Positions 10,615-63,493 of a stretch of DNA of 64,000 nt are shown here, piece by piece. The notes beneath the pieces were generated by a model. That model was not told the origin of the DNA and did no database searches. It worked only from the letters and a program-made list of their open reading frames with translations. A program made the position numbers and the translations under genes. Location: NCBI GenBank assembly GCA_021203515.1, contig JAJQAY010000083.1, positions 3,665-67,664 on the forward strand, in the 5' to 3' direction. This stretch comes from Bacteroides sp. (lineage in GTDB: Bacteria; Bacteroidota; Bacteroidia; Bacteroidales; Bacteroidaceae). Positions within the stretch are counted from its first letter, which is position 1, and the number at the start of each line of letters is the position of its first letter.

Positions 10615-10616
10615 CT

Positions 10617-10693
10617 GTCATTCAGAGCGAAGCGAAGAATCTACTCCCTGCATTTATCAAGGAGAATAGATTCTTCGCTTCGCTCTGAATGAC
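10617..10693. repeat. Perfect 27-bp inverted repeat hairpin (GTCATTCAGAGCGAAGCGAAGAATCTA)
   Basis: Arms are 10617-10643 and 10667-10693, exact reverse complements. The loop has an additional CTCC/GGAG pairing. No T-run follows. Confidence 0.9.
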
Positions 10694-10710
10694 GGACACT
10701 CCGATTGGAT

Positions 10711-11971: not shown

Positions 11972-12010
11972 CGCAGCTTAATTTTCAATTTTCAACTTTC
12001 AACTTTCAAC
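11937..12010. repeat. REP-like hairpin element (AGTTGAA heptad class) overlapping the M16 gene 3' end
   Basis: AGTTGAAAGTTGAAAGTTGCTATGCAGTGTCATAGCGCAGCTTAATTTTCAATTTTCAACTTTCAACTTTCAAC. The loop is related to the 7769-7862 element in the opposite orientation. Confidence 0.9.
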
Positions 12011-12021
12011 TCTTTAGAATT

Positions 12022-18800: not shown

Positions 18801-20397
18801 CAATGCTTTCATTCCCGACCAAATGGTAACCTTTACCGGAGACCTCGATGGCGACATGCACATCTATGGAGAGATGGATAAGCCGAGAATGCGCGGTGAG
18901 ATTAAACTGGACAGCGTGTCGGTATATGCCCGCCAGGCAGGTGCACGCTATTGGTTCGACAATCGTCCGGTGCAGATTAAGGACAATGAGTTGCTGTTTA
19001 ACAAATTCTCTATCTATACCACCAGTAGGAATCCATTTAGGATTGACGGCAATGTGAATTTCCGCAATCTGGATCGCCCCACGGCCAACTTGACATTGCG
19101 CGCCAATAATTATACCTTACTGGATGCGCCGCGCACCCGCGAAAGCCTTGTTTATGGCAAGGTATTCGTGGATTTGAATGCAACGGTTCGCGGTCCGCTG
19201 GATGCATTGGTGATGCGTGGAAATATGAACCTGTTGGGTAATACGGACGTCACGTACGTACTGACCGACTCACCTTTGACGGTGGAAGACCGCCTCGACG
19301 GGCTGGTTACTTTTACTTCCTTCACTGACACCACATCGGTTCATGCCGATGATGCTCCCACCATGTCGCTTGGCGGCATGGACATGGTGATGTCCGTACA
19401 CATAGACGATGCCGTGCGCCTGCGTGCTGACCTCAGCCCCGACCGCAGCAAATTCATCGAACTGGAAGGCGGTGGTGACTTGAACATGCAATATACACCG
19501 CAGGGTGACATCAATCTTACGGGACGTTACACGCTTTCGGGTGGTGTCATGAAGTATTCACTTCCGATTATTCCGCTGAAAGAGTTCCAGATTAATAGTG
19601 GTAGTTATGTGGATTGGCGGGGTAATCCGATAAACCCGACGCTGAGCCTGAAAGCTACCGAGCGTGTGCGTGCTTCGGTAGCCGATGGTGACGACGGAGG
19701 TACGCGTATGGTGAACTTCGATGTTTCCATCGCCATCAAGAACCGCTTGGATGCTCCCGAACTTATCTTCGATATAACGGCTCCTGATGATGCCACCATT
19801 GAAAACGAGTTGCAGGCGATGGGTGCTGAAGAACGTAGCAAACAGGCGATTGCCATGCTGGCGACAGGAATGTATATGAACAGCGGTGTCAAAGGCGGCG
19901 GATTGTCAATGGGAGGCGCCCTGAACAGTGTGTTGCAAAGTCAGATTAATGCATTGGCAGGTTCGGCTTTGCAGAGCGTGAATGCTAACTTCACGCTAGG
20001 TGTAGAAGACCGTACGGCGGCAGAGACGGGCGACAAGCAGACGGATTACAGCTTCCGCTACTCGCAACGCCTCTTTAACGACCGCGTGCAGATAGTAATC
20101 GGTGGTAAGGTGACCACCGGTGCCAATGCGACGAATGATGCCGAGTCGTTCATCGACAATATCTCGCTCGAATACCGGTTGGATACATCGGGCACTCGCT
20201 ACGTACGTGCATTCTACGATAAGAACTACGAAAGCGTACTCGACGGGGAAATCACGGAAACCGGTGTCGGCCTTATTCTCCGTCGTAAGATGGACCGCTT
20301 GGGAGAACTCTTCATCTTTAAGAAAAAGAATAGGAGAGGGTCGGGACAAAATAGAAGAGGACAAGAAGAAAATAGAAGAAGACAAGAAGAAAAATGA
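15835..20397 (+). CDS. tamB: Translocation/assembly module protein TamB (DUF490 family)
   Basis: 1520 aa with an N-terminal TM anchor and a long beta-rich body. The conserved C-terminal block is SLEYRLD...RAFYDKNYESVLDGEITETGVGL. An Omp85 partner follows directly. Confidence 0.88.
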   Translation: MRRKWLRRVVWILLTPIFLFILLMILLYVSPVQNLLRKQVTAMASEATGMDISVERIDLRFPLNLLVRGVLVVQQPDTLLNLESLNVHVQAWPLLKGKVEVDDITIKNVAVNSAGLMDGMQIKGVLGQFFLESHGIDLGKEDAVLNRVELSDTHLQVLLADTTESPKDTTETALNWKVTLHTLGLKNVSVDLKMPLDSLSLSTRIGDAGLEDVNADLGRQCYGWRKFTLTGTTVNYDTGMAPPAEGFDASHIALRDIRIDIDSVMTCGRNMSAVIREFSMSDRSGLSITSLTGRLSADSTVIRIPYLQLLTPHSQVDLTAQTYWELVDIPTTGRLSARLNALIGKQDVLLFAGGLPESFKEAYPFRPLVIRAGTEGNLKQMQISRFTADLPGAFSLSGGGELWSLTDSLKRGAQLDFEMQTQDLNFLTGLTGDKPDGSIVVPDSMNLAARLGLDGSQCTATLKLEEGKGTLHLDAAYNLSTEAYHANLGIDALQLHHFLPKDSLYTLTANIAAKGKGTDIASHLTVADVEARLKELQYGRWNVSGVNMDAGLRASVTSLKLTSDNGLLKMQSTADLRLDRKYMDGKLDMNVEQVDLHKLGMAPKPLQHPFAFRLGAEARRDSIKLKLDAGDMDLQFRARSTLKKLLEQSDEFMAILTKQLEDRRLDHAALRRVLPSATMKLTAGRANPVSYFLQTKDVSFQDFNLRFGFTPRRGINGRTAIHGLHVDSLQLDTIFFAIKQDTARMVLQGGVINGPKNPQFVFRSTLTGEIHNEDAELTVDYVDGKGKTGILFGVNARPLVEGRNSRGNGILLNLTPAEPIIAYRKFRFVDKSNWIYLHKNMRVYANIDMDGGDGLCFRMQSDRSDSISLQNMNVELSRFRLGELSDVLPYMPRLSGLFSAEAQYIQTPTSLQVSAEANIDKLTYERQPVGNIGLGATWLPGDKEKHYLNTYFSYDKQEVMTADGVLMQTNGKDSLDITTTLEHFPMKIANAFIPDQMVTFTGDLDGDMHIYGEMDKPRMRGEIKLDSVSVYARQAGARYWFDNRPVQIKDNELLFNKFSIYTTSRNPFRIDGNVNFRNLDRPTANLTLRANNYTLLDAPRTRESLVYGKVFVDLNATVRGPLDALVMRGNMNLLGNTDVTYVLTDSPLTVEDRLDGLVTFTSFTDTTSVHADDAPTMSLGGMDMVMSVHIDDAVRLRADLSPDRSKFIELEGGGDLNMQYTPQGDINLTGRYTLSGGVMKYSLPIIPLKEFQINSGSYVDWRGNPINPTLSLKATERVRASVADGDDGGTRMVNFDVSIAIKNRLDAPELIFDITAPDDATIENELQAMGAEERSKQAIAMLATGMYMNSGVKGGGLSMGGALNSVLQSQINALAGSALQSVNANFTLGVEDRTAAETGDKQTDYSFRYSQRLFNDRVQIVIGGKVTTGANATNDAESFIDNISLEYRLDTSGTRYVRAFYDKNYESVLDGEITETGVGLILRRKMDRLGELFIFKKKNRRGSGQNRRGQEENRRRQEEK
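20348..20389. repeat. Tandem 21-bp duplication in the tamB 3' end
   Basis: AAAATAGAAGAGGACAAGAAG (20348-20368) and AAAATAGAAGAAGACAAGAAG (20369-20389), with 1 mismatch. It encodes the basic tail NRRGQEENRRRQEEK. Confidence 0.85.
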
Positions 20398-20398
20398 T

Positions 20399-22753
20399 AT
20401 GAGACGACTGATACTATATATAATAGGTATAATGTTGTTGGCGGGTTGTTCTACTACCAAACATCTGCCGGAAGGCGAGATACTCTACATTGGGCAGAAG
20501 CCGATGATTGTGGAGAACCGCAGCGAAACCCCGGTAGGCGAAACGGCTATGGAAGAAGTGGAAGCCGCCCTTGCTACTGCGCCCAACAACTCTTTGCTGG
20601 GTAGTTCGACAATGCGTATTCCTTTCCCCTTGGGATTGTGGATATACAATGGTTTCGTGAAATATGATAAAGGCTTAGGGAAGTGGATATTCAACGTTTT
20701 TGCGGCAAAGCCGGTGTTGATGTCGTCCGTCAATCCGGATATCCGGCAGAAAGCGGCGGCTAACTTGCTGCGCGACTATGGCTATTTCAATGGTACTGTT
20801 AGTTATAAGACTTTTATAGGCCCGAAAGACTCGCTGAAAGCCAAACTGCAATATACCGTGGATATGCGCAATCCTTATTTTATCGATACGGTCTACTATC
20901 GCGGTTTCAGCGAACGGACACTGCGTGTCATGAATATGAGTCGCCGCTCTTCGCTTATCAGCCCGGGAGAACAGTTCAATGTCGCCGACCTCGACGGGGA
21001 ACGTACCCGTCTCAGTACGCTGTTGCGCAATATCGGTTACTATTATTTCCGCCCGGACTATATGACGTATCAGGCAGATACTACGATGGTGCCCGGTGGG
21101 CACGTCACGATGCGCATGATACCTGCACCCGGCATGCCTGCCGTTGCCGAGAAGCCGTTCTATACCGGTAAAAGAGCTTTTTATCTTTACGGCAAACAGG
21201 GAGAGGCGCCCAACGACAGCATGGAATATAAGAACTTGCGCATCTACTATCATGATAAATTGCGGGTGCGTCCCAATATGCTTTATCGCTGGATAGGCTA
21301 TCAGAACTATCGCCAGAAACGTCAGGTGCAGGGCAGCACCGGTATGTCCCGTCGGCAAGCCATGCAGAACCTTTACAGTTACTATCGCCAGACGCGTGTG
21401 CAGGAACGCTTGGCTAATGTCGGCATCTTCCGTTATCTCGAAATGCAATATACGCCCCGCGACACGACGTTCGTTTGCGATACGCTCGATGTGAATTTCT
21501 ATGCCGCTCTCGACAAGCCTTATGATACGGAGTTGGACTTTAACGTAACGATGAAGAGCAATAACCAGACCGGACCGGGAGCATCTTTTACGGTCACAAA
21601 GAATAATGTATTCGGCGGCGGTGAGTCTTGGAACGTTAAGCTGAACGGCTCTTATGAGTGGCAGACCGGCAAGGATCGCTCTTCGCTGATGAATAGCTAT
21701 GAGTTCGGTGTTTCTACCTCACTTATGTTTCCGCGTGTCGTTTTCCCCCGCTTTGGCGATAGGGAATATGACTTTCCCGCAACTACGACTTTCCGTCTGT
21801 ATGCCGACCAGTTGAACCGTGCAAAGTATTATAAACTGTTGGCTTTCGGTGGAAATGCCACTTATGATTTCCAACCGAAGCGGACGAGTAAGCATAGCTT
21901 CACGCCTTTCAAACTGACTTTTAATGTACTCCGTAATCCTACGGAAGCCTTCAAGCAATTGCAGGCGGATAATCCGGCGCTCTACGTCAGCTTGCGCGAC
22001 CAGTTCATTCCTGTGATGGAATATACCTATACCTATGATAATGCTACCAAGCGCCGTATCCGTAATCCGATTTGGTGGCAGACTACGGTTAGCTCCGCCG
22101 GTAACCTCACATCTTGTATTTACGGTATCTTCGGAAGGTCTTTCGGTGAGAGAGACAAGAAATTGCTGGGAGTACCCTTCGCCCAATTCCTGAAAGTGAA
22201 TAGCGAGTTCCGTTATCATTATAAGATAGACAAGAACCAGATGATAGCATCGCGCATTGCCGGTGGAGTAGTATGGTCTTATGGAAATGCCATATCGGTT
22301 CCTTATACCGAACAGTTCTACATCGGTGGTGTCAACAGTGTGCGTGCTTTCTCGGCACGCAGCATCGGTCCCGGCGGCTGTATTCCCGACAAAGAGAGCA
22401 AGTACTCTTTCATCGATCACGTGGGCGACATTCGTATGGAAGCCAATGTGGAATATCGTTTCCGTATCATCGGCGACCTGCATGGAGCAGTGTTCCTGGA
22501 TGCCGGCAATGTGTGGTTGATGCGTAAGGATGAATCGCGTCCCGGCGGCGAACTGACAATGAGAGACTTTGCCAAGCAGATAGCTTTGGGCACGGGTGCT
22601 GGTTTGCGTTACGACATGGATTTTCTTGTTTTCCGTCTGGACTGCGGTGTTGGTTTGCACGACCCGTATGAAACCGGTAAATCGGGATATTATAATATTC
22701 CGAAGTTCAAGGACAGCCTGGCGCTACACTTTGCTATCGGTTATCCGTTCTAA
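20399..22753 (+). CDS. tamA: BamA/TamA family (Omp85) outer-membrane protein, lipoprotein form
   Basis: The ATG at 20399 lies 1 nt after the tamB TGA. Lipobox LLAGCS. C-terminal beta-barrel ending ...HFAIGYPF. The upstream part of ORF 20120-22753 overlaps tamB and is not credible. Confidence 0.85.
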   Translation: MRRLILYIIGIMLLAGCSTTKHLPEGEILYIGQKPMIVENRSETPVGETAMEEVEAALATAPNNSLLGSSTMRIPFPLGLWIYNGFVKYDKGLGKWIFNVFAAKPVLMSSVNPDIRQKAAANLLRDYGYFNGTVSYKTFIGPKDSLKAKLQYTVDMRNPYFIDTVYYRGFSERTLRVMNMSRRSSLISPGEQFNVADLDGERTRLSTLLRNIGYYYFRPDYMTYQADTTMVPGGHVTMRMIPAPGMPAVAEKPFYTGKRAFYLYGKQGEAPNDSMEYKNLRIYYHDKLRVRPNMLYRWIGYQNYRQKRQVQGSTGMSRRQAMQNLYSYYRQTRVQERLANVGIFRYLEMQYTPRDTTFVCDTLDVNFYAALDKPYDTELDFNVTMKSNNQTGPGASFTVTKNNVFGGGESWNVKLNGSYEWQTGKDRSSLMNSYEFGVSTSLMFPRVVFPRFGDREYDFPATTTFRLYADQLNRAKYYKLLAFGGNATYDFQPKRTSKHSFTPFKLTFNVLRNPTEAFKQLQADNPALYVSLRDQFIPVMEYTYTYDNATKRRIRNPIWWQTTVSSAGNLTSCIYGIFGRSFGERDKKLLGVPFAQFLKVNSEFRYHYKIDKNQMIASRIAGGVVWSYGNAISVPYTEQFYIGGVNSVRAFSARSIGPGGCIPDKESKYSFIDHVGDIRMEANVEYRFRIIGDLHGAVFLDAGNVWLMRKDESRPGGELTMRDFAKQIALGTGAGLRYDMDFLVFRLDCGVGLHDPYETGKSGYYNIPKFKDSLALHFAIGYPF

Positions 22754-42783: not shown

Positions 42784-44686
42784 CTATTCTTTTATACAGC
42801 GGATGGAAAGAGCGATATAAAAGTCCTTGTTCTTAGCTAAATTACTGCCACGAGCAATCTCATTCATATTTCCCATCATGAGAATGGCTTCATCGGCAAG
42901 CGTCCCTCCAGCGTTTCCACTTATCCAGTAGGCGGCTGCCGTACCGGTATTTCGACGCTTTTGTGTTCCATTATCTCCAACATTGAATAATCCGTTGGAT
43001 AAGAAACTTAATCCGGTTTGGTTGGTGGCAGGGAGGGCTTCTGCTCCACTGAAGCTTTCTCATGTTGCGGCTTTCAGGAGGGCAGTTTCGTAATTCTCCA
43101 GTTTTTCCCAATCGGAACTATTCGGGATTTTCCAACCTTCAGGGGGCTAACTCACCGTCAAGAAGAGCTTCTCCATTATAGAAGAAGACGTTGCCATACT
43201 TGAAGTAACCGGCTTCTTTACCTAATTCATCTATTGAGGAGAGAGGCTTTCTGTTTTGATAACAAGTTGCCCGCAAGTCTTCTTTCATCCAATATTGCGT
43301 ACCTATTTTTACGATGGGATAGGTTTCCAGTATTCCGCTTCGCAAGTCTCTGATGGTGTAGCTGCTTACGTTGATGGACAAGGCTGTTGCAGGCTTTTCA
43401 AAAACAATGTTTTTGTTGTTGTCGATATAAAACTTCTCAATCGGTTTAGAGTGTCCGGCTGTATAATTTAAGGAGCTATTTTGTGTATCCCAGCATACGG
43501 AACCGCCATGTATCAAGGCCGCTTTGTCCGGTAGCTGGAGAACAACCCCTTTAGTCAAGTCGGTCTGTTCGTTGTCCAACACAGGATAAACCACAATGGC
43601 TTTGGAACCGAATGTCTTATCGTCGGTCTGGAGGTATTCGCGGCAAACTTCGGCTATAGGGTTTCCCTGATAATAAACCCTGTATACGTCGGATGTGCTG
43701 AATGAGAAAGAGGCTGTGTGAACGGCAGTGATGTTGTAATCATTCTCGCCGGTTGCCTTTTCATTGAAACTCCATTCTTTGATATTAGCGACTATACCCG
43801 TCAATGCCTTGCTTGTGCTTTGCAGTGCATCGATGCGGATTTCCAATTCCGTATCGCTTTTGACAGTAGCCGAAGACATGGAGCAAGTGTATATTTTGCC
43901 ATTCCATTCCAGTGTGAATGCTTGGTTGCTGTTGGGGTGTGTCTGCGGGATGATAATAAACTCTTTGCCCGTCAATGTGCCGTCATCTTGCTCCTTCCAT
44001 TTTCCGAAAAGGGATAATATCTGCCTCACTATCTTCTACCAATCCTGACAATTCTCCCGATTGCAGGTCGTATATAACTTGGGTCTTGAAGCCGGTAGTA
44101 ACGATTCTGGGATTGACCTTAAGCATATCGTTCACGTTCTCTCCTTTTTCGGGAGCAAGTACGATGTTGATTTTTGCCAGTCGGTGCTTGTATTCCAGTT
44201 CTACAGTTTCCTTGCTGTTACGCACTTCCTCGATGTTGGCAGTCATGAAGTTGGATAGGGCGTAGTTTTGCGAATTGCTCTGATTGGTTTGCACTGCGAT
44301 ATTCAGGAGAGTACTTCCTTGGGAAATGCCTTCGGCTTGATAAGGGTAGTAACTGATAAAGTCCAGCGTGGCATCGCCTTCGGGATAGAACACTTCCTTT
44401 TGCGGGGTTAGGGTAGAGCCTTCTCCGCAAGCTAGACGCAGATTATTGATGTAGCGCTGTTGGTCCAAGGAATTATTCGTCAGCATGGCGAATAGTCCCA
44501 TTTGGTCTCCAACCTCAAAAGTGCTTTGTGTAGCCTTGGTGGTGCTTTTACTGATTTTGGTGGAGAAGGAAATGGGGATACTCCCCTCCTTTATCTCATC
44601 TTCAATTTTGTTGATGCAGGATGCACTGAACAGGGCGCAAAAATGAGTGATATATTCAATGCCTTTCCTAAATAGCAGTTTTTCAT
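42784..44686 (-). pseudogene. Fimbrillin-family lipoprotein with C-terminal FISUMP domain, at least 3 frameshifts and 1 nonsense codon
   Basis: Lipobox ...HFCALFSASC. FISUMP motifs are KIGTQYWMKEDL and LAPEGWKIPNSSDW. Shifts are at the T5/A5 run 44679-44683, near 44000-44013 and at the G5 run 43142-43146. An in-frame TGA at 43060-43062 sits where Trp is expected (KAATwESFSG). Confidence 0.78.
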
Positions 44687-45972: not shown

Positions 45973-47821
45973 ATGATAAAGCAACGTAAAATAGAATTGC
46001 TGGCTCCTGCCAAGAACCTGGAATGTGGCATCGAAGCGATTAATCACGGGGCGGACGCGGTGTATATCGGTGCGCCTAAGTTCGGTGCACGTGCGGCAGC
46101 GGTCAATTCGCTGGAAGACATTGCGGCTTTGGTGGAATATGCACATATATATAATGTACGCATCTACGTCACGGTCAATACCATCCTGAAAGAAGAGGAA
46201 CTGGCGGAGACAGAGCAGATGATTTGGGAATTATATCGTTTGGGCGTAGACGCACTGATAGTGTAGGATATGGGGATTACCCGCCTCCACCTGCCACCCA
46301 TACCCCTACATGCCAGCACGCAGATGGATAACCGTACACCGGAGAAAGTCCGTTTCCTGAAAGATGCCGGCTTCCGCCAAGTGGTATTGGCGCGTGAGCT
46401 TTCGTTGCAGGATATCCGCCGCATTCACGATGCTTGCCCGAAGTACCTCTCGAAGTATTTGTGCATGGCGCACTCTGCGTCAGCTATAGCGGGCAGTGCT
46501 ATGTCAGCCAGGCCTGCTTCAGTCGAAGTGCCAACCGGGGAGAATGTGCGCAGTTCTGCCGGTTGCCGTTCAGCCTTGTCGATGCCGACGGGAAGACGAT
46601 TGTGCGCGACAAGCATCTGCTATCCCTGAAAGACCTCAACCAGAGCGAAGTGCTGGAAGACCTGCTCGATGCAGGCGCTTCTTCCCTGAAGATAGAGGGG
46701 CGGCTGAAGGACGTTTCGTATGTAAAGAATGTCACTGCCGTCTATCGCCGGAAACTGGATGCTATCTTTGCCCGTCGCAAGGAGTATGTCCGTGCCTCTT
46801 CCGGTACTTGTCATTTCGACTTCACTCCCCAATTGGACAAGAGTTTCAGCCGGGGCTTCACCCACTACTTCCTGCAAGGCCGCGAGCAGGGAATATCCTC
46901 TTTCGATACTCCCAAGTCTCTGGGCGAGGAGATGGGAACGATGAAGGAGCAGCGTGGCAATTATCTGACCGTGGCAGGCGTGAATCCTTTCCATAATGGA
47001 GACGGCGTATGCTTCCTCGATGAGCAGGGCCGTCTGCAAGGCTTCCGCATCAATCGTGTGGACGGAAACAAGCTATATCCCGCGGGAGAGATGCCCCGCA
47101 TCAAGCCCCGCACCCTCCTTTACCGTAATTTCGACCAGGAGTTTGAGCGTGTGCTTGCCCGCAAATCGTCCGAACGGAAGATAGGTGTTAGCCTGGAGTT
47201 GGCCGCCACTTCGTTCGGCTTTAGCCTGACGGCTACGGATGAAGACGATAATCGCGTGACGCTGTCCTTTCCTTATATAAAGGAACCGGCACGTACACCG
47301 CAGGTGGATAACCTCCGGACGCAATTGAGCAAACTGGGTAACACCCCGTTCGAGGTGAGACTACTCCTGAAGGACTCCCCGGCTTCATTGTCCGCTTCCC
47401 GGAGAACTGGTTTCTGCCTGCTTCGGTGGTTGCCGACTGGCGCAGACAGGTGATAGACAAACTGATTGCCGCCCGGCGCATCACCTATCGTCGCGAACTG
47501 GCCGTGTGGAAGCCGACGCGCCATGCCTTTCCTGCCGCCTCGCTCACTTATCTGGGAAATGTGATGAACAACCCTGCCAGGAACTTCTATCTCGAACATG
47601 GAGTTGCCTCGGTGGCTCCGGCTTACGAAAAGCAGGCGGTGCCCGATGCGGTGCTGATGTTCTGCAAGCATTGCCTGCGCTATAGCATGGGTTGGTGCCC
47701 GACGCATCAGAAAGGGCGCTCCTCTTATCGCGAACCCTATTATCTGGTGAGAACGGACGGCAAGCGTTTCCGCCTGGACTTTGACTGTAAACATTGCCAG
47801 ATGAAAGTATATGCAGAGTAG
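45973..47821 (+). pseudogene. Peptidase U32 family protein, in-frame TAG plus two frameshifts
   Basis: Blocks IELLAPAKNLE, GADAVYIGAPKFGAR and FVHGALCVSYSGQCYVSQ. The TAG at 46264-46266 (ALIV*DMG) sits at an expected Gln. Shifts are near 46440 (G/GG) and at the C-run 47377-47380. Confidence 0.85.
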
Positions 47822-47849: not shown

Positions 47850-48878
47850 ATGCGGACGGATGAGAATAAAACGCAGATTAACGCAGATTTATGCAAAGAT
47901 TTCCCTTCTCTGCGTAACTCTGCGTTAATCTGCGTTTTACTATTGCTTGCCTGTTGCCTGGCTTCTTGCCACTATCCCCGCCCCAATCTGGAAGACGAAA
48001 CCTTGAGTGCCCGCACCCGCGACTCCCTGGCTTATCTCTACGAACGGCATTATACTTGGGACACCAATCTGGAAGTTCAGGATGACTCCGTCACCATCGC
48101 CTGCCTGCCGGTGAAGGACTGCTACAACACGCTCCACAAGGGCGACCGCGTGGTCGTGGCAGAGTTTGCCGTTCATCCTGCCGATAGCGTGGATAGCGTC
48201 TGGGTGAAGCTGGCCCACTCGCAAGAGGTGCAGGGCTGGATACGGGAGTCGGATATGATACGCGCCTTTGTCCCGACGGACAGTATTTCGCAATCCATCT
48301 ACTTGTTCAGCGATACACATGCTTCTTACTTCATCGTTATCTTCGCGTTGTTTGTGGCGGTGTGGCTGTTTCGTGCTTTTCGCCGCAAGCAATTGCAGAT
48401 GGTCTATTTCAATGATATTGACAGTGTGTATCTGCTGTTGCTGTGTCTGCTGATGGCGTTCAGCGCCACCGTCTACGAGTCGATGCAGGTATTCGTGCCG
48501 GAGACGTGGCAGCACTTTTATTTTAATCCCACGCTGTCGCCATTCCGGGTGCCGTTCGTGCTGTCCGTCTTCCTGATGAGCCTTTGGCTGTTCGTCGTGG
48601 TGCTGCTGGCGGTGCTCGATGATTTGTTCCGTCAACTCAGTCCGGCCGCTGCCGTGTTCTATCTCCTGGGACTAGCTTCGTGTTGCATCTTCTGCTACTT
48701 TTTCTTTATTCTGACCACACACATCTACGTGGGTTATCTGTTTTTGGGCGTATTCGTCTACGTATTTCTGCGAAAGCTGCACGCTTCGCTGTCGGTGTCG
48801 CGCTATCGCTGCGGGCATTGCGGGCAGAAGTTGCGGGTGAAAGGCGTATGTCCGCATTGCGGGGCTATCAACGAGTGA
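47850..48878 (+). CDS. Hypothetical membrane lipoprotein-like protein with SH3-like segment and C-terminal zinc ribbon
   Basis: Signal/lipobox-like ALICVLLLLACCLASC, several TM helices, C-terminal CGHCGQKLRVKGVCPHCG. The start is uncertain (ATG 47811 or 47850). The 5' end lies inside a hairpin element. Confidence 0.6.
   Translation: MRTDENKTQINADLCKDFPSLRNSALICVLLLLACCLASCHYPRPNLEDETLSARTRDSLAYLYERHYTWDTNLEVQDDSVTIACLPVKDCYNTLHKGDRVVVAEFAVHPADSVDSVWVKLAHSQEVQGWIRESDMIRAFVPTDSISQSIYLFSDTHASYFIVIFALFVAVWLFRAFRRKQLQMVYFNDIDSVYLLLLCLLMAFSATVYESMQVFVPETWQHFYFNPTLSPFRVPFVLSVFLMSLWLFVVVLLAVLDDLFRQLSPAAAVFYLLGLASCCIFCYFFFILTTHIYVGYLFLGVFVYVFLRKLHASLSVSRYRCGHCGQKLRVKGVCPHCGAINE
47868..47938. repeat. 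REP-like hairpin element (ACGCAGATTA class) inside the 5' coding region of the membrane protein gene
   Basis: AAAACGCAGATTAACGCAGATTTATGCAAAG...CTCTGCGTAACTCTGCGTTAATCTGCGTTTT. Confidence 0.85.
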
Positions 48879-51609: not shown

Positions 51610-51783
51610 TTCACCACAGAGTACACAGAGTCTCACAGAGGGATTTATATTCAAACGCAGATTAACGCAGATTTTCGCAAAGCAAACTCTAATTATATAA
51701 ATAATCTGCGTGAATTTGCGTTAATCTGCGTTTCTTTAATTTTTTCTTTAAACTCTGTGAGACTCTGTGTCCTCTGTGGTGAA
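51610..51783. repeat. Nested hairpin elements: a CACAGAG-class outer hairpin with an ACGCAGATTA-class hairpin in its loop
   Basis: Outer arms 51610-51640 and 51753-51783 are 31 bp with 1 mismatch. Inner arms are about 51652-51682 and 51700-51733. Confidence 0.88.
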
Positions 51784-51786
51784 ATC

Positions 51787-54048: not shown

Positions 54049-54050
54049 TT

Positions 54051-54080
54051 CACCACAGATTACACAGATTAACACAGATT
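54051..54080. repeat. Left arm of a perfect 30-bp inverted repeat flanking the GxxExxY gene
   Basis: CACCACAGATTACACAGATTAACACAGATT. The exact reverse complement is at 54503-54532. Confidence 0.95.
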
Positions 54081-54455
54081 TTAAATAATATATCTGTGAA
54101 TACCTGTTTGTAAGTTTATAACGTTGAAATTAATTAGTAGGCCTAAATTATGCTCTGATAATCTGAGATAGGTCATAAGTTGGGCTGTATGTATAGGTAA
54201 TAAGGTCTCTACGGATTTTAGTTCAAGGATAATTGTATTTTCTACTAAAACATCCATTCTATAACCGTTGCTTAATGTGATTCCCTTATAATTAATAGGC
54301 AGGTCCTTCTGTTTCTCGAATTTTATACCTTGCTTTTCAAATTCGTAACATAAACATGCTTCATAAGTACTTTCTAAAAGTCCTGGTCCTAATGCTTTAT
54401 GAACTTCATAAGCACAACCTATAATCTTATATGATAAGTCATTAATATCTTTCAT
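54081..54455 (-). CDS. GxxExxY protein (PD-(D/E)XK nuclease-like superfamily)
   Basis: The GLLESTYEACL motif matches GxxExxY, and the 124-aa size is typical. The likely start is MKDINDL at 54455. The TTG-start extension to 54482 lies in the 11-bp repeats. Confidence 0.85.
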   Translation of the reverse strand: MKDINDLSYKIIGCAYEVHKALGPGLLESTYEACLCYEFEKQGIKFEKQKDLPINYKGITLSNGYRMDVLVENTIILELKSVETLLPIHTAQLMTYLRLSEHNLGLLINFNVINLQTGIHRYII

Positions 54456-54457
54456 TG

Positions 54458-54501
54458 CAATCAGTCTCCAATCAGTCTCCAATCAGTCTCCAATCAGCCT
54501 C
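54458..54501. repeat. Four tandem copies of the 11-mer CAATCAGTCTC directly 5' of the GxxExxY start
   Basis: Copies are at 54458-54468, 54469-54479, 54480-54490 and 54491-54501. The last copy is CAATCAGCCTC. Confidence 0.9.
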
Positions 54502-54502
54502 C

Positions 54503-54532
54503 AATCTGTGTTAATCTGTGTAATCTGTGGTG
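54503..54532. repeat. Right arm of the perfect 30-bp inverted repeat
   Basis: AATCTGTGTTAATCTGTGTAATCTGTGGTG. It ends 3 nt before the radA stop codon. Confidence 0.95.
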
Positions 54533-54535
54533 AAT

Positions 54536-55903
54536 TTAACCGAATAGCGTTCTGAACGCCTCTTCTACCTTTCTCACCGGCACCAATTCTATTTTTATTT
54601 TAGAAGTATTCAGTCCCTGCATATTATATTTCGGCAATATAAACCGCTTGAAACCCAACTTTTCAGCTTCGCCGATGCGTTGTTCGATCCTATTCACCGG
54701 GCGAATTTCTCCTGATAACCCGATTTCCCCCGCCATGCAGACTTCCGGTTCTATTGCCGTATCCATATTGCTGGACAGGATGGCGCTGATAACGGCAAGA
54801 TCTATCGCCGGATCATTCACCTTCAGCCCTCCGGCAATGTTAAGGAATACATCCTTTTGGGCAAGCTTGAAGCCGACCCGTTTCTCCAATACCGCCAATA
54901 ACATATTCATTCTCCGGGTGTCGAAGCCTGTAGCGGAACGTTGCGGATTACCGTATACGGCACTGCTAACCAATGCCTGCGTCTCTATCAGGAATGGACG
55001 TATGCCCTCTATTGCCGAAGCGATAGCGACACCGCTCATGCCCTCGTGATCTTGGCTCAACAGTAACTCCGACGGATTGTCAACCTGCCGCAATCCATCC
55101 TGCCGCATCTCATAGATGCCCAACTCTGCCGTACTTCCGAAGCGGTTCTTGATACTGCGCAGGATGCGGTACATATAATGCTGGTCGCCATCAAACTGCA
55201 ACACCGTGTCTACGATATGCTCCAAAACCTTCGGCCCGGCAATACTGCCTTCCTTATTGATATGCCCGATAAGAATTACCGCCGTATGCGTTTCTTTGGC
55301 AAACCGCAGGATGGAAGCCGAGCACTCCCGCACCTGCGCAATGCTTCCCGGTGACGATTCGAGTGTTTCCGTAGAAATAGTTTGGATAGAGTCTATGATA
55401 ACCAGGTCCGGATGTGTATTCTTGATGTGCACGTAAATCTGTTCCAATGATGTTTCGCAGACAATAAGGCAATCGTTGGAAGTCTGCGCCAGCCGGTCGG
55501 CGCGCAACTTTAACTGACGGGCACTTTCCTCGCCCGAAATATATAGGATTTTCTTTTCAGGTATTTGCATCACTGTCTGCAATACTAAAGTCGATTTCCC
55601 GATACCCGGCTCACCGCCTATCAGTACGAGGGAACCTTGTACCAATCCGCCTCCCAGCACCCGGTTCAACTCTACATCATGCAGGTCGATGCGCGGTTCG
55701 TCGTCAGCTTCTATTTCGCTCAGTGTCACAGGCTTTGCCTTGGCGGTTTCTATGCCCGATGTCGGTCGCTTGTCCACCACCTCTTTGCGCATCACCTCTT
55801 CCACATACGTATTCCACGCTCCGCACGACGGACACTTCCCAATCCATTTGGGCGAGTCTTGTCCGCAGTTACTGCATACATAAACCATTTTTTCTTTTGC
55901 CAT
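54536..55903 (-). CDS. radA: DNA repair protein RadA (Sms)
   Basis: Zinc finger CSNCG...CPSCGAWNT, Walker A GGEPGIGKST, KNRFG motif, Lon-protease-like C-terminal domain. 455 aa. Confidence 0.95.
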   Translation of the reverse strand: MAKEKMVYVCSNCGQDSPKWIGKCPSCGAWNTYVEEVMRKEVVDKRPTSGIETAKAKPVTLSEIEADDEPRIDLHDVELNRVLGGGLVQGSLVLIGGEPGIGKSTLVLQTVMQIPEKKILYISGEESARQLKLRADRLAQTSNDCLIVCETSLEQIYVHIKNTHPDLVIIDSIQTISTETLESSPGSIAQVRECSASILRFAKETHTAVILIGHINKEGSIAGPKVLEHIVDTVLQFDGDQHYMYRILRSIKNRFGSTAELGIYEMRQDGLRQVDNPSELLLSQDHEGMSGVAIASAIEGIRPFLIETQALVSSAVYGNPQRSATGFDTRRMNMLLAVLEKRVGFKLAQKDVFLNIAGGLKVNDPAIDLAVISAILSSNMDTAIEPEVCMAGEIGLSGEIRPVNRIEQRIGEAEKLGFKRFILPKYNMQGLNTSKIKIELVPVRKVEEAFRTLFG

Positions 55904-55932
55904 ATTAAAGAATTTCCTTTAGAATGATTGCC

Positions 55933-55940
55933 CAAAGGTA
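55933..55940 (-). promoter_or_regulatory. -7 box TACCTTTG for radA
   Basis: Minus-strand TAnnTTTG match 30 nt upstream of the radA ATG. Confidence 0.45.
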
Positions 55941-56187
55941 CGATTTTTCATTGCAGTGCCGATAGGGTGCTACAGAGTTTTTCTATGAGCAGGTAGAAAA
56001 ATAGTATAGTATGGTTGGTGGTATCTGAAAATATTATTGGGCAATATGCCTAGAAGATGCTTTGCATACTACTTGAGGATATTCAGGAAGCAATTATAAT
56101 AACCTGCGATGATTTAGAAAGAGAGAGATTGATGGGAATGTTATGGAGATTTTATCTATTTCAGTACAGAGGTGGGACTGTATTTGG

Positions 56188-56205
56188 AGTTCTAGCAGAA
56201 CTTAA
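56188..56205. repeat. Left copy of an 18-bp perfect inverted repeat (AGTTCTAGCAGAACTTAA)
   Basis: The exact reverse complement is at 56798-56815. It has an internal dyad AGTTCT-nnn-AGAACT. Confidence 0.9.
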
Positions 56206-56329
56206 GAGCATAAAAAGAGGGAAACTTGGCATTAAGAACATGCCGACAATGTTTTTCTTTGAAATTTGTCTTCATAGCTTTTTGATTTAATTTGGTTTCT
56301 AAAATTGCATTTAGTACTTTAAGGCGTTG

Positions 56330-56337
56330 CAAATGTA
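56330..56337 (-). promoter_or_regulatory. Only TAnnTTTG box (TACATTTG) inside the IR-bounded segment, facing away from susC
   Basis: The plus strand reads CAAATGTA. I found no other TAnnTTTG on either strand in 56206-56797, and none between 56816 and the susC ATG. Confidence 0.4.
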
Positions 56338-56797
56338 TTTAAGTTCCGTTAAATACCGAAAGGGAAATAAACATATTCTCACCTTATTTACAACATTTAA
56401 CTATTTAAAAAGCTTTATATATCTCTACTAGTAAATAAATATGTTTAATAATTCACCTGTTAGCTCTGCTGTTTATGTGTATTTACTACTTTCTTATTCT
56501 ATTCCATCTCTAATATTATAAAATATTAATTATTAATTGCCAAACCCTGCCTTTGCTGTGAAAACCGCTTGATTATTGGTAAAATCAGATGTTTTTCTAT
56601 AATGATTTATTTATGTTAAAAATGAGCACTGGCATTCTTATATGGATTGTTGGACTTTTTTCTACCGAAGCACAAAAGAAGGCTGCTAATATTTATTTAG
56701 TAGCACCAACTAATTATTAAATGTGGCAGGGGTAGACTTGTGTGGTCTGGTTAGGCCGGTAGATGCTTTAGAAAAAGCAAAACAGGAAAAGTTCTTT

Positions 56798-56815
56798 TTA
56801 AGTTCTGCTAGAACT
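56798..56815. repeat. Right copy of the 18-bp perfect inverted repeat (TTAAGTTCTGCTAGAACT)
   Basis: Reverse complement of 56188-56205, 127 bp upstream of the susC-like ATG. Confidence 0.9.
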
Positions 56816-56941
56816 AATTTCAATTATTTTTTTACTCGTTTTCCCCATGAAGTAGTTTTAAAAGGAATAGAGAGCTTTTCTTTTGTGAAGAAATAAATCT
56901 TTTCTTAAAACATGTGTTTAATTAATGTAACAGACTTAAAA

Positions 56942-59900
56942 ATGAATTTACGAATTGTTTGTGGACAACGATGCTCAAGGCCTAAGGTTTTGACGGCATT
57001 TTTACTCCTTTCTCTCTTTGCGCCTGTCACTATTTCCGCTAATGCGACGGATACGGATGCTACGGAAGTTGTGCAACAGCAAAAGGAACAGACTATTACC
57101 GGTACGGTGATTACCGGTGACACGAATGAACCGGCGATTGGAGCTACTATTTATTTGAGGAATAGTACCACGGGTGCTATTACGGATGTAAACGGTAAGT
57201 ATACTATTACGGTAGAAGGTATAGGAGGCATATTGGAATTCTCTTATATAGGATATAAGAAACAGGAAGTGGACATTGCCAACCAGAAAACTATAAATAT
57301 CACCTTACTACCGGATACTGAAGTATTGGACGAAGTGGTGGTTGTAGGTTATGGCAGCCAGAAGAAAGAGAGTGTAGTTGGTGCCATCTCTACTTTGGAT
57401 GTCACTAAATTGACTGTACCGGGCGCATCCATATCAAACGCACTGGCCGGGCAGCTTTCAGGCATCGTTTCTATGAGCCGTTCAGGTGAACCGGGCAAGA
57501 ACAGTGCCGCCGATTTCTATATCCGAGGTGTGTCGTCCTTTACGGGAACTACTTCTCCGTTGGTTTTGGTGGATGGTATCGAGCGTGACCTCGACCTGGT
57601 AGATACGGATGACATTGCTGCCTTCTCTATTTTGAAGGATGCTTCGGCTTCCGCTGTATATGGTGTACGCGGTGCCAACGGTGTTATCTTGATTACCACC
57701 AAAAAGGGTACTGTAGGTAAGCCGCAGATTAATGTACGTACCGAATTCGGTCTCACCCAGCCTACAAAGAAACCTAAAATGTTGGGATCTGCCGAATGGG
57801 CCGAACTTTATAACGAGGCTTATTCAAAGGAATATTATACTCAGTCTGATATTCAGAAATACCGCGACGGCAGTGACCCGGACCTCTATCCGAATGTAAA
57901 CTGGTTCGATGCTCTGTTTAAAGATGCGGCTGTCAATCAGAATGTAAAACTGAACATTACAGGTGGTAGTGACATCGTGAAGTATTATATCTCCGGTTCG
58001 TTCTACAATGAAAGTTCTATTTACAGAACGGCCGGGAATATTTACGGTTATGACTCTTCCATCCGATATAATAAATTTAACTTCCGTGCAAATGTAGACT
58101 TGAATTTGACTAAGAGCACAGTGGTTAACTTTAACTTGGCGAACATCTACGAGAAGTCGTTCGGCCCCGGATTTGGTGATAAAGACTCGGATATTTGGTC
58201 ATACACATTCCTTACTTCGCCTAATGCTTATCCGGTGGAATACTCCGATGGCAAGCTTTCAGGCCCCTCTACCGACTCCGGTTATAATCCCTGGAACATG
58301 TTGGTTTACTCCGGATACCGCGAGCAGTTCTGGAATTCAGCCCAGTCTCTTATCGGTATTACTCAGGACATCGGTGCGTTGTGGAAACCGTTGGAAGGAT
58401 TGACTGCCAATATTAAATTCTCCTGGGATGCTTGGAATACCACCACACAACGCCGTTCAAAAACTTCTTCTTACTATCATGCCCGCGGACGTAAAGATGA
58501 CGGCAGCTTGAGGTATGATGAAGAAGACGGTGTTCCGGTACCCGTACATACAGGTAGTGAAGACCTGAGTTTCAACATCGGACGTGACGGAACCATGACA
58601 CGTTACGTAGAGGGTTCGTTGAACTATAGCCGTTTATTCAATAATGTGCACCGCGTGGGTGCTTTGTTCCTTTACAATCATAAGATTTATACAAAGACCC
58701 AGGCCGGCAGCAGTAATGAAGCATTGCCTCATAAAAATCAAGGTATAGCCGGTCGTGTTACTTATGCCTTCCGCGATACTTACTTTGGTGAAGTGAATAT
58801 GGGTTACAACGGTTCTGAAAACTTCGCTCGCGGTCACCGCTTCGGTTTCTTCCCGGCATTTGCTGTGGGCTGGATGGTTTCCAATGAAAAATGGTTTGAA
58901 CCCGCCACTAAGGTTGTGGATATGTTGAAGTTAAAAGCTTCTTACGGTAAAGTAGGTAATGACAATATCGGCGGTAACAGAAGATGGGCCTATGAATCGA
59001 GCATTGTGAGCGGTAATAGCTGGAATTATGGTAACAGCGGTGGTAACGGTGGCGGCAGTCTTATCATGGGTGAGGTGGAGAACCTTACCGTTTCTTGGGA
59101 AGAAGCCAAGAAATTTAATGCCGGTGTAGAATTCTCCTTATTTAATAAGGTGAAAGTGTAGGCCGATTATTTCCGTGAAGAGCGCGTCGGTATTTTCTTG
59201 CAACGTTCCGGATTGCCCGCTATCGTGGGTATATCTACTGTTCCTTATGTCAATGTGGGTGAAACGCTAAATCAGGGTTTTGATGCCAGCGTTGAATATA
59301 CGCATCAGATTGACAAAGTGTTGGTTACTGCCCGCGGCAACTTTACCTTCAACCGTAATGAATTGAAAAATAACGATGAGCCCGATTGGAAATACAAATA
59401 CCAAAATAAGATAGGAAAGCCTTTCGGTTCGGACGGTTATCTTCAGCCCTTCGGTTTGGTAGCCCTTGGCTTGTTCGAGAGTGAGGAAGAAATAGCCAAC
59501 AGCCCCGTTCAGAACTATGGCGAGTATCGCGTAGGTGATATCAAGTATAAAGATGTGAATGGTGGCGGTAAGATAGACGACTTGGATAAAGTGGCTCTCG
59601 GATATACCAATTTGCCGGAAATCACTTATGGATTTGGTGCGACAGCCCAGTGGAAAGGTTGGGGCTTCAACGTCTTCTTCCAGGGAGTAGCCCGTACCAG
59701 CTTCTTCCTCAGCGGCTCTTCTATCCGCAGTCCGTTCTCGTCAGGTAATGCAGATCGTGGAGCTCTCAACTCGGATATATATGGTAATGTATGGATGTCT
59801 ACCAATACACCCGAACAAAATGCCAATGTCGCCTATCCGCGCCTCAGTGCCGGTAGTGGTGGCGCCGGTGCTTCCAATAACTCGCAGACTTCTTCATGGT

Positions 59901-60136
59901 GGTTGCGCGACGGTTCGTTCATACGTCTGAAGAGTCTGGAAGTAGGTTATTCATTGCCCAAGAACCTGCTTAGCAAGTCATTCATCAAGGCACTTCGTTT
60001 TTATGTATCAGGCAACAACCTGTTGGAATTCAGTCCGTTCAAACTGTGGGATCCGGAAAAGAACAAGAACAATGCCGATGGTTCGGGTTATCCCCTCAAT
60101 CGCGTATTCTCCGTCGGATTTAATGCTAATTTCTAA
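56942..60136 (+). pseudogene. SusC/RagA family TonB-linked outer-membrane protein with one in-frame TAG
   Basis: Carboxypeptidase-regulatory-like N-terminal domain (ITGTVITGDTNEPAIGATIYL...DVNGKYTI), plug block VVVGYGSQKKE, C-terminus ...VGFNANF. The TAG at 59159-59161 (NKVKV*ADYFREER) is in frame with ORF 59198-60136. Confidence 0.9.
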
Positions 60137-60158
60137 ACTTTAATAAAACAAGAATTTT

Positions 60159-62065
60159 ATGAAAACTCAGATAAAATCCCTTTTGCTTTTATGTTTCGCT
60201 GCCGGAAGCGTTTTGCTTTCTTCTTGCGATGATTTTCTAGACAGGCAGGAAGATGAGGAAATGACTTTTGAGAAAATCTGGCAGTCAAGAAATACCGTTA
60301 AGCAATATTGGCTGAACGCCATGTCGTTTCTGCCTCAACCTCGTGGTACTTATTGTGGTGACTATGATCCCTATTTAGGTGCTTCGGATGAGTGTACCAT
60401 TGCTTATGACCGTGGGTATCGTTCCATCAATTTTGGTTCATGGAATGCTTCTAATGTACCTTATTATAAAATGGCAGACTACTATAAAGGCATTCGTGAG
60501 TGCAACATCTTTATGCAGAATGTGTATTCCTGTTCTGACCCCTTGGCAAAAAAAAAGCTGATTTGGATCTGTATTATTACCAGGCCAAGTTTGCCCGCGC
60601 TTTCTATTATTTTTGCATGATGCGTGATTACGGACCTGTATTCTTGGTGGGTGATGAACTGTTGGATTTCACGGCTACTACGGAAGATCTGTACCGTCCG
60701 CGCAACACGTGGGAGGAATGTGTGGATTATGTAGTAAGCGAGATGACGGCTTGTGCCGAAAGCGATGCTGTGAAAACGCAGTTTGAACCGGCTGAATATG
60801 GTTTGGCAACCAAAGGAACTTGCTATGCCGTTATTTCCCGCCTGTTGCTCTATTCTGCCCGTGACTTGTTCAATGGCAACCAGCTTTACAGCAGCGTGAA
60901 GAACCCGGTGACGGCTGATTTTCCGGAATTGTCGGGAGTCAACCTCTTTCCGCAAACCTATGATGCCAACAAGTGGCTGAAAGCGGCAGAGGCAGCCAGA
61001 AGGGTGATAGATATGCCTAACTATAAGTTATATCGCTCTGCCAGTAACGATCCTTATGAAAATTACAATGGCATATTGGGTGAACTATGGAACAGTGAAC
61101 TGATTTGGACGGACGGGTATAAAACCGTTTCTATCTGGCAGTAAATGTAACGCCGACCAGTATGACAGCGACAACTGCTTATGGGGCAGTTGGCCCTACG
61201 CAGCAACAAGTAGATGCTTATGCTATGAGCAACGGACGCTATCCTATTACAAGCTATGGAGCAGACGGTAGCCCCGTTGTTGATCCGCAGTCCGGATACG
61301 ATGCAGCCACAGAATTGCAAAAGAGTGACTGGACCTATCCTTTGCATGGCTGGAGCACATACGGCGATTTCGGTATCAATGCTCCCAACATGTACAAGGA
61401 CCGTGAGCCGCGCTTTTATGTATCAGTCTTTTTTTGGTGGTACCGGATGGGCATATCCTAATGGTTGGGCGGTTACTTCATTTGCCAAAGGCGGAAATGG
61501 AAACAAGAGTCACGACTTCACCAAGAGTGGATATTTGATTAATCGTTTTTATGACCACAAACTGAGTGCCGGTAACTGGGGCAACGTTACTTTCCCCACC
61601 TTCCGTTTGGCAGAAATGTATCTGAACTTTATAGAAGCCGTATTCGAGTGTGAAAAGAGAGGAGTTACCATGCCCGCCGATTATCGTGCCAAAGCACTGG
61701 AGGTTTGGGCAGACTTGCGCGACCGTGCCGGACTGGACCCGATTACCGATATTTATCCCAATGCCACTGCTGCCGACTTGGTGGAACTTTGCCGCAAGGA
61801 ACGTCGCATAGAACTTGCTTTCGAAAGCCAGCGATACTTTGACACCCGTACATGGATGATTGCAGAAGAAACCGATGGTGGTCCTATGTATGGTATGGAT
61901 ACGAGTTTCCCGCAGCCGGACGGCGATGCTTCTATAACTCCCGACGGTTATTGGCAACGTACTGTCTTTGAAACTCGCGTTTTCAAGAAGAATCATTATC
62001 TTTACCCGTTCTCACAAAGAGAGTTAGACCGTAACAAGTTGCTCACGCAGAACTATGGGTGGTAA
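60159..62065 (+). pseudogene. RagB/SusD family nutrient-uptake lipoprotein, at least 3 frameshifts
   Basis: Lipobox VLLSSCDDFLD and position directly after susC. Fragments are 60159-60620, 60563-61144, 61162-61461 and 61256-62065. Shifts are at the A9 run 60548-60556, near 61125-61150 and at the T7 run 61429-61435. Confidence 0.88.
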
Positions 62066-62115
62066 ACTGAGTAGTATTTTAAGAATTTAAATAAAACGAT
62101 AAACGAATAGTTTAT

Positions 62116-63493
62116 ATGAAAAAATATATATGTTATTATCTCCTCTTGGCTGTGTCTTTGCCGTTTACGCAAAGCGCCTGCGAGGATGGAAGAGATGAAT
62201 ACTTGAGCGATTTCAGTACGATTCTTTACTTTAGAGATAGTGGTGCCATCAGTATGACCCTGTATAAGACCGGAGAAAATACGAAGTATCAATTGTCGGT
62301 AGTCAAGGCGGGTTCCGATACGGGAGCAACAGCAAGTGTGAGTGCCAAGGTGATGGACAACGCTGAATTACTGGCTTACAATGCAGCAGAAGGCGCTAAC
62401 TATAAGAGTCTTCCTTCGGATTGCTATTCCGTAGGTGCGTCAGATGTGAACTTTACTTCATCCGACTTGTATAAGACGGTGGATGTATCCATCTCTCCTG
62501 AAAGTGTCGAAAGCTATCTGGATGGAATTAGCACTTACGTCATTCCTTTTGAGTTGGTGAATGGTTCCGATTCTGTCAATGTGGAGAAAAAAATACGCTT
62601 TCCTTCAGGTCATGAACGTTTTGACACCGACTATCGGTTTTGAGACACCGGGATATATTGCCACTGATGACATTACGGATAATAGTGGAACTATCACTAT
62701 CCAACAGAAAGTTACCATGCCGATAAGTAATCTGTGGAACTTTGATTTTGTGATTGAAGTGGACGAAGATGTGTTGACACAGTACAATACGGAAAATAAC
62801 GAGACTCTGAATCTGATGGCGCAAGGTTCTTATCAAGTGAAAGCATCCGCATTCACTGCCGGTAAAAATTCGGCAACGGTCAGCATCTCTATCGATAAGT
62901 CTAAGCTGTCATTGGGACGTCAGGCATTGCCGCTGCGCATTAAGAGTATCTCCAATACCAATTTCGAGATAGATGCTGTCAGTGCAACTTGCGTGATAGG
63001 TGCAAACTATACGGTGCCGAGAAGCTCATTGGTGCAGATACCTCTGTCATTGGATATGCTTTCATCGAATGCAACGGTCAACGGTGACGGTACGGGCCTG
63101 ACCGGTTTGTTCGATGGCAGAGCAGGCGGCAAGCACTGGCATGGCAATTATTCCGGTACTGGTTTCGATCCTGTCTACGGTCAGTATATCGACTTCCACC
63201 TGAACAGTGCCATCAATCACTTTGCTTACGACTTCTGGACGCGCTTTGAGAATTCAGCAGGCGCTCCGGTGTCTACGGATATTTATGTCAGCAATGACGG
63301 TTCTACATGGACGAAGCTGGGTGTTGTAGCCACTGCTTTCACGAAGGATGACGAAGAGTACAATTCAGGAGTATTCTCTTCGGGAACGGCATTTACTTAT
63401 GTTCGCTTTGCAGTTACCAAGAGTAATGCCGGCAATTGCAGTAACGGTGCTGCATACTGGAATTGTGGTGAAATGAAAATATACGGACTCTAA
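62116..63493 (+). pseudogene. PUL-associated surface lipoprotein (DUF1735-like N-terminus, discoidin/F5-8 type C-like C-terminus), 1 frameshift
   Basis: Lipobox FTQSAC. Fragments 62116-62643 and 62561-63493 join at the A7 run 62587-62593. The C-terminal jelly-roll-like block is YVRFAVTKSNAG...NCGEMKIYG. Confidence 0.7.

Follow-up and report, generated by a model that had tools for sequence, protein, structure and literature searches.

A probable invertible promoter, read as OFF, upstream of a decayed susC/susD locus in an uncultured Bacteroides lineage

Does the intergenic element between radA and a susC-like gene in this Bacteroides DNA invert, and if so, what would it switch? The element spans 628 bp with its repeats (positions 56188-56815) and lies in a 64-kb stretch of DNA, here called the window, from a metagenome-assembled genome (MAG) labelled "Bacteroides sp." (RadA protein MCD8183370.1). 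An earlier note on the window had read it as an invertible promoter of a SusC/SusD locus, bounded by inverted repeats and locked OFF. Our analysis supports the core of that reading. The element is very probably a site-specific invertible promoter (inverton) that controls the susC/susD-type polysaccharide utilization locus (PUL) to its right and is currently OFF.

The repeat pair and the promoter motif between its arms

We read the repeats directly from the window. The two arms are identical at 18/18 positions and 592 nt separate them, as the earlier note had described. Each copy is a dyad of 6+3+6 nt whose centre is asymmetric (AGC on one side and GCT on the other), again in line with the note. 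The dyad AGTTCTNNNAGAACT occurs at only two sites in the 64 kb, both intergenic, and was matched in none of 100 dinucleotide-preserving shuffles of the window. With up to three mismatches allowed, the 18-mer has no copy in the window beyond these two. The segment between the arms is AT-rich and ORF-poor, as claimed: its G+C content is 26-35%, versus about 50% in the flanking genes, and it has no open reading frame (ORF) of at least 60 amino acids. No Rfam family was found in 55850-57000. Coordinates are collected in Table 1.

The sole TAnnTTTG match within the segment is the minus-strand box TACATTTG, and no plus-strand match lies between 56188 and the susC ATG; the note had reported the same single box and also a separate one for radA, which we found as TACCTTTG. 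By motif and conservation, then, a promoter faces the operon in one orientation only. Inversion would carry the box to plus-strand positions 56666-56673. Its distance to the susC ATG would then be 276 nt, close to the 270 bp estimated in the note and to the 257-258 nt found in relatives. One figure needed correction: the in-frame ATG at 56942 puts the right repeat 126 nt, not 127 bp, from the gene.

Table 1. Features of the element and its neighborhood (window coordinates)
Feature	Position	Strand	Remarks
radA	54536-55903	-	Left neighbor, transcribed away from the switch; synteny kept in L018, L019, and L070
radA -7 box TACCTTTG	55933-55940	-	radA's own box
Left inverted repeat AGTTCTAGCAGAACTTAA	56188-56205		Core AGTTC-TAGCA-GAACT, presumed recombinase site
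Invertible segment	56206-56797		592 bp, AT-rich, noncoding
Terminator-like hairpin	56226-56256	+	TTGGCAT...ATGCCGA, then a T-run; consensus scan only
-7 box TACATTTG	56330-56337	-	Predicted to fire leftward, codirectional with radA; susC OFF
-33-like TTTC	56358-56361	-	Consensus TTTG; 20 nt upstream of the -7 box
Right inverted repeat TTAAGTTCTGCTAGAACT	56798-56815		Perfect reverse-complement match to the left repeat; susC ATG follows after 126 nt
susC-like TonB-dependent transporter gene	56942-60136	+	Inactivated by CAG to TAG (Q740*) at 59159-59161
susD-like gene, in fragments	60159-62065	+	Three frameshifts versus the intact orthologue

Three smaller features lie inside the segment. A partial third copy of the repeat, TTTAAGTTCCGTTA at 56338-56351, abuts the -7 box. 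We considered it as an alternative recombination site and rejected it; it aligns as a diverged form of the relatives' promoter-upstream sequence and probably resembles the repeat by chance. At 56789-56795 there is an extra half-site, AAGTTCT, which ends 2 nt short of the 18-mer and is separated by 5 nt (TTTTT), on the interior side, from the right core half-site. The stem of the terminator-like hairpin is conserved in an alignment with the relatives. As assembled (OFF), the hairpin would face rightward transcription entering the segment from the left, its presumed role; after a flip to ON it would lie within the susC leader, without its T-tail.

Orientation at orthologous and related loci

We searched the N-terminal protein sequence encoded by susC against metagenome contigs and obtained 80 related loci; in all comparisons, orientation was read at the contig level. 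The three closest loci (L018, L019, and L070) share the radA-switch-susC synteny and encode SusC proteins 91-92% identical to that of the window. A protein named from Bacteroides cutis belongs to the 90%-identity cluster of the orthologue's SusC (P0032). We also tried a RadA cluster member (P0003) as a source of more orthologous loci and set it aside, as a GH3 gene, not the PUL, adjoins radA there.

The flanks of the three loci are colinear with the window (radA, 79-80% nucleotide identity; susC leader, 88-89%), and window positions 56198-56422, which hold the -7 box, align with all three in reverse at about 80%. In alignment A1, made with the reverse-complemented window, the homologous stretch starts about 80 nt upstream of the promoter and extends as far as the outer edge of the repeat, with no homology beyond it. 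Within the segment, 56206-56422 is thus the part homologous to the relatives' segment, reversed, and 56423-56797 is lineage specific. The orthologue is bounded by a perfect 25-bp repeat, AGTTCTCTTGGAACTTATGAGCTTA, in the same frame but with a different centre, TCTTG instead of TAGCA. All three relatives carry the homologous box (TACATTTG/TATATTTG) on the susC-facing strand, and the TTTC -33 element is conserved in them; L018 and L070 have TTTC-N19-TAYATTTG facing susC (the 19 nt being a hand count in L018), versus N20 in the window. Because the relatives are mostly in the promoter-to-susC orientation and have intact genes, that orientation can be taken as ON, and the window orientation is predicted to be OFF for susC.

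The orthologous locus is also found in both orientations within a species. We fetched the contigs encoding each of three exact SusC variants (P0153 to P0155). Fourteen full-length and four partial contigs, L018 and L019 included, have the L018 orientation. A single contig, L120 (ERZ27279726), has the opposite one, with flanks 99% and interior 99.2% identical. L119 and L120, which have opposite orientations, encode an identical SusC protein (P0154). Each contig orientation must have read support, because the repeats are much shorter than the assembler k-mers.

More distant switches have the same design. The G25 group (SusC 77-78% identical, repeat AGTTCTTGCAGAACT) has flank identities of 99-100% and an identity of up to 100% over the 406-bp interior. 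Its orientation is split, with 12 contigs one way and 5 the other; L025 and L026 are 100% identical save for the flip. Among the G47 loci, L082 is flipped relative to L047 and L048 at 100% identity. The promoter layout in both groups is like that of the window: near one end of the segment is a box that reads outward over the repeat. Among the orthologous and homologous loci, the segment is thus represented in both orientations, its breakpoints lying at the repeats, and the earlier claim of an invertible promoter bounded by the repeats holds at this level.

These reversals bear on a reading in which the repeats are operators for a dimeric, DNA-looping transcription factor and the segment does not invert here. 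Each copy is indeed a near-perfect 6-3-6 dyad, typical of sites for helix-turn-helix dimers. However, operators give no reason to expect what orthologous and related loci show, namely reversed segments between equivalent dyads and breakpoints located at those dyads, and we regard this reading as highly improbable.

The window 18-mer itself recurs at unrelated loci. A scan against one genome per species (596 Gb, two strands) returned 11 loci, 5 of them in Bacteroides, and did not recover the window locus itself; the six non-Bacteroides loci are single matches at chance level (about 17 expected over the 596 Gb and two strands). Four Bacteroides genomes have inverted pairs of AGTTCTAGCAGAACTT 739-1316 bp apart, with a single mismatch in one L013 arm. 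These segments sit between a DUF4861 gene and a different, unrelated susC/susD pair. The flanks of the DUF4861 loci are colinear, and the L011 interior runs opposite to those of L010, L013, L017, and L015 (L011 4506-4859, for example, matches L017 1066-713, reversed, at 90.7%), so that the inner ends TGGTACATT... and TAATATT... trade sides. The interiors of the loci that share the window repeat are unrelated to the window interior.

Terminal inverted repeats around a short, AT-rich, noncoding segment could also be the mark of a miniature inverted-repeat transposable element (MITE) or an insertion sequence (IS) remnant inserted upstream of susC. Against such an insertion, there is no target-site duplication (the flanks read ...TATTTGG and AATTTCA...), and the interior is single copy in the window and unrelated to the sequences that this repeat encloses at other loci. 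The segment also holds the same position in related species, with its promoter conserved, and flips in place rather than relocating. We consider a transposon origin extremely improbable.

Altogether, pairs of the AGTTC-N5-GAACT type, a few with one arm base off, were found in nine locus types (the window, the orthologue group, G25, G47, L050, L054, G52, G64, and the DUF4861 locus). The nine types have eight different centres among them, and the partner's centre is always the exact reverse complement. The G47 outer-arm mismatch (AGGACT) remains with the flank in both orientations, and the inner bases beside the core (TGG or TAA) move with the interior; the crossover is thus apparently confined to the core. 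The G52 switch precedes a unit of genes for an extracytoplasmic function (ECF) sigma factor, an anti-sigma factor, and SusC.

Could RecA-dependent homologous recombination between chance or structural inverted repeats produce the same inversions with no dedicated enzyme? Inverted repeats can recombine without one, and we identified none here. However, the repeats are merely 15-25 bp long, their frame recurs at nine locus types with mutually unrelated interiors, and exact AGTTC-N5-GAACT matches number in the dozens, versus about 0.2 expected in 80 loci of 2.5 kb; exchange limited to the core also speaks against it. We judge the RecA reading very unlikely.

Conserved binding arms with a homology-dependent central exchange region are typical of tyrosine recombinases, and the constant arms, matched centres, and core-confined exchange seen here fit a site-specific recombinase. 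Because no recombinase gene lies beside any switch examined, the enzyme would act in trans; a recombinase encoded elsewhere in the genome, presumably a Tsr0667-family tyrosine DNA invertase, most likely flips the segment. With the AGTTC/GAACT half-sites of the two repeats as its binding sites and strand exchange in the 5-nt centre or directly beside it, such an enzyme would turn the 592 bp around. In the orientation assembled, the promoter (-33 TTTC, 20 nt, -7 TACATTTG) would fire toward radA and leave the PUL without a promoter (OFF). In the other, it would read across the right repeat into susC (ON).

The variety of centres suggests, tentatively, a further possibility: the 5-nt centre of AGTTC-N5-GAACT may be a locus-specific address, while one trans-acting invertase reads the constant arms. 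Exchange would need identical centres, so each promoter would flip alone, and the PUL switches could not cross-recombine and scramble the chromosome. Orthologous switches could then be readdressed, as TCTTG in the B. cutis-like relatives versus TAGCA in the window would illustrate, both arms having changed together. The window centre is the same as that of the DUF4861-susC PUL switch in B. congonensis and allies.

A second kind of segment was seen in some groups of susC homologues. About 2.2 kb upstream of susC, a roughly 200-bp segment bounded by AGTTC-N5-GAACT precedes genes for an ECF sigma factor and a FecR-like anti-sigma factor (L052, L057, L062, and L076, at about 2493-2696; L064, L081, L084, and L097, at about 2465-2667). 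It has one orientation in all contigs seen. This putative switch would control the ECF sigma/anti-sigma regulator pair.

State of the switch and of its PUL in the window lineage

The genes to the right of the switch are, in order, the susC-like gene, the susD-like gene, a BT_3987-like_N / F5/8-type-C lipoprotein gene, and the start of a BACON-domain gene. Pfam searches assigned CarbopepD_reg_2, SusD-like_3/SusD_RagB, BT_3987-like_N, and BACON domains to them, and precomputed matches added Plug. By these domains, the switch adjoins a susC/susD-family pair, as Tsr0667-type invertible regions do.

This PUL is degenerate over 56942-63493, which the earlier note's account did not include. Position 740 of SusC is Q in all relatives, and the stop codon of the window is present in four independent Logan run assemblies. 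The susD frameshifts lie in an A9 tract (60547-60555), at 61126 (-1), and in a T7 tract (61429-61435), and the BT_3987-like gene that follows has a frameshift at 62586 (+1 in an A7 tract). In the relatives, the open frames are intact at 1069 (susC), 640 (susD), and 464-468 (next gene) codons, with called proteins of 1064 (SusC) and 635 (SusD) amino acids. The susD tract lengths vary between run assemblies (A9/A8 and T7/T8; loci L098-L101) that are otherwise 100% identical, and no A8/A9 plus T7/T8 combination restores the frame; the variation is due to sequencing noise or to drift in a gene that no longer functions. Because susC, susD, and the next gene are all broken, a flip to ON would not restore uptake function.

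Is the switch itself still active in this strain? Several observations weigh against a working inverton. The window and the junction-covering assemblies of five runs (SRR15221329, -35, -26, -36, and -27), all of the same strain, are OFF and colinear. A flipped junction would read ...GTATTTGG-AGTTCTAGCAGAACTTAA-AAAGAACTTTTCC, and an exact 39-mer of the flipped left junction of the window locus had 0 matches in metagenome contigs, a null result that is uninformative alone because the strain is rare (its exact RadA was seen in only six contigs, all of one SRA project). With its PUL nonfunctional, selection for switching may be gone. The repeat centre differs from that of the orthologue, so that acceptance of the window site by a resident invertase is assumed. 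Pfam and NCBIfam searches detected no recombinase domain in the 40 ORFs of the window or in 8 ORFs beside the related switches examined. The promoter is assigned by motif and conservation, and the link to Tsr0667 includes a match of the window core AGTTCTAGCAGAACT to AGTYYYN4GDACT, which we take to be the Tsr0667 consensus and use as a lead only. A crude regular expression for recombinase catalytic motifs also found no match in any of the loci collected.

The single orientation, the null junction search, the pseudogenised PUL, and the changed centre would all suit a fossil, that is, a former inverton frozen OFF before a dead PUL after the invertase was lost or came to reject the new centre. 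However, the repeats are still 18/18 identical, where a frozen, unselected pair would be expected to diverge, and the identical core serves a flipping switch in other Bacteroides. Assemblies also show the majority orientation only, so a minority ON fraction would be invisible in them. We consider a fossil unlikely, though a serious competitor to an inverton that may still be switching in this strain, which we prefer.

Of the earlier description "locked OFF," then, the second word stands and the first does not. The box faces away from susC, and the comparison across assemblies of this strain found OFF throughout; inability to flip is not borne out, because the repeats are perfect. The note's statement that the window has no recombinase gene agrees with our domain searches, the enzyme being presumably encoded elsewhere.

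Contig ends and transcription toward radA are two further aspects of the OFF state. Logan contigs end inside the segment, at 56383-56439 and 56457-56619. We rejected these ends as a sign of mixed orientation; they are scattered in the most AT-rich stretch, the covered junctions are all colinear, and coverage drop-out is the better explanation. In the OFF state, the invertible promoter (56320 leftward to 55903) is codirectional with radA, which begins 285 bp beyond the left repeat. It could possibly read into radA and so couple the switch to a DNA-repair gene.

Other genes in the window also look split or truncated (10081-11971, 12134-13179, 15835-22753, 43139-44501, and 46434-47453). They comprise an M16 peptidase spread over three ORFs, a MatE transporter, two giant ORFs that overlap, an Mfa-like fimbrillin, and a U32 peptidase without its N terminus. 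These genes point to indel errors in the MAG or, alternatively, to more widespread gene decay in the lineage.

The window has other repeats besides those of the switch. A perfect 32-bp inverted repeat, TTCACCACAGATTACACAGATTAACACAGATT, brackets a gene for a 133-amino-acid PD-(D/E)XK_3 (PF13366) protein at 54049-54534, and this cassette of about 490 bp includes four tandem CAATCAGTCTC units (54459-54502). L018 and L019 lack the whole cassette at the corresponding intergenic site, and it therefore looks like a small mobile insertion. Its arrangement resembles RAYT/REPIN, and all Logan contigs break within its right arm. Intergenic hairpin elements made of short tandem units occur at 7745-7887, 11928-12020, 14846-14948, 47867-47939, and 51610-51785. 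Their units are (AAAGTTG)n and (CACAGATTA / CGCAGATTAA)n, the latter being the unit of the cassette arms.

Comparison with known invertible regions of Bacteroides

With this analysis, an uncultured Bacteroides lineage gains a well-supported phase-variable PUL promoter whose orthologue flips within a related species at the contig level. It leaves the current understanding of Bacteroides phase variation unchanged. For annotation, the cluster should be described as both phase variable and pseudogenised, which gives two independent causes for absent expression. Intact relatives are mostly ON and the decayed lineage is uniformly OFF, and the locus could therefore exemplify decay behind a silenced switch. 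Largely conserved arms with matched, locus-differing centres yield a rule, open to testing, by which a global invertase might keep its many switches independent.

The capsule promoter invertons of B. fragilis, which are flipped by the serine invertase Mpi (PMC4747536 and PMC12632263), resemble the window element in having a promoter segment of a few hundred bp between inverted repeats. Both systems would share a global trans-acting invertase and ON/OFF control of a surface-structure operon. They differ in the enzyme class and the repeat, in the target (a PUL here, not a capsule locus), and in length (592 bp versus roughly 200 bp). The window 18-mer has no ACGT-type motif of the kind in ARACGTWCGT, which we take to be the Mpi motif, and this places the element outside the Mpi regulon.

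The closer counterparts are the regions inverted by Tsr0667. In B. fragilis, this single tyrosine invertase acts on three SusC/SusD shufflons and on nine further regions (PMC4747536). Regions under Tsr0667 lie beside susC/susD genes in B. fragilis YCH46 (Nakayama-Imaohji et al. 2009, as cited in PMC4747536 and PMC9881135). B. thetaiotaomicron has the repeat AGTTCTGCAAAGACTTTGCAGA beside BT2267, a homologue of Tsr0667, and this repeat is described as conforming to the Tsr0667 motif (bioRxiv 10.1101/2025.06.24.661302); the window core shares 12 of 15 bases with this published repeat (AGTTCTGCAAAGACT...). Like the Tsr0667 regions of both species, the window has a short AGTTCT... inverted repeat beside a susC/susD pair. 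The Tsr0667 invertase need not be adjacent and acts globally in trans, as we propose for the window. Nine of the 12 B. fragilis regions are simple inversions, and the window likewise would be a simple promoter inversion; with one susC 5' end and just the two intergenic core sites, it is not a susC shufflon. Unlike in the Tsr0667 system, the invertase was not found within the 64-kb window, so that dependence on a Tsr0667 homologue, and with it membership in such a regulon, is presumed; unlike the Tsr0667 regions, the window has pseudogenes downstream.

Invertible regions that adjoin susC/susD genes are common in Bacteroides (PMC10939037 and PMC12632263). Those catalogued with PhaseFinder near susC/susD in gut Bacteroidales (PMC10939037) have the same signature of intergenic repeats near the susC start. 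The catalogues report both orientations in metagenomes, with read-level ratios, for reference species, whereas our evidence is at the contig level and comes from an uncultured MAG lineage and its relatives. The window switch belongs to this known kind of susC/susD-associated Bacteroides inverton, an ordinary but well-documented example.

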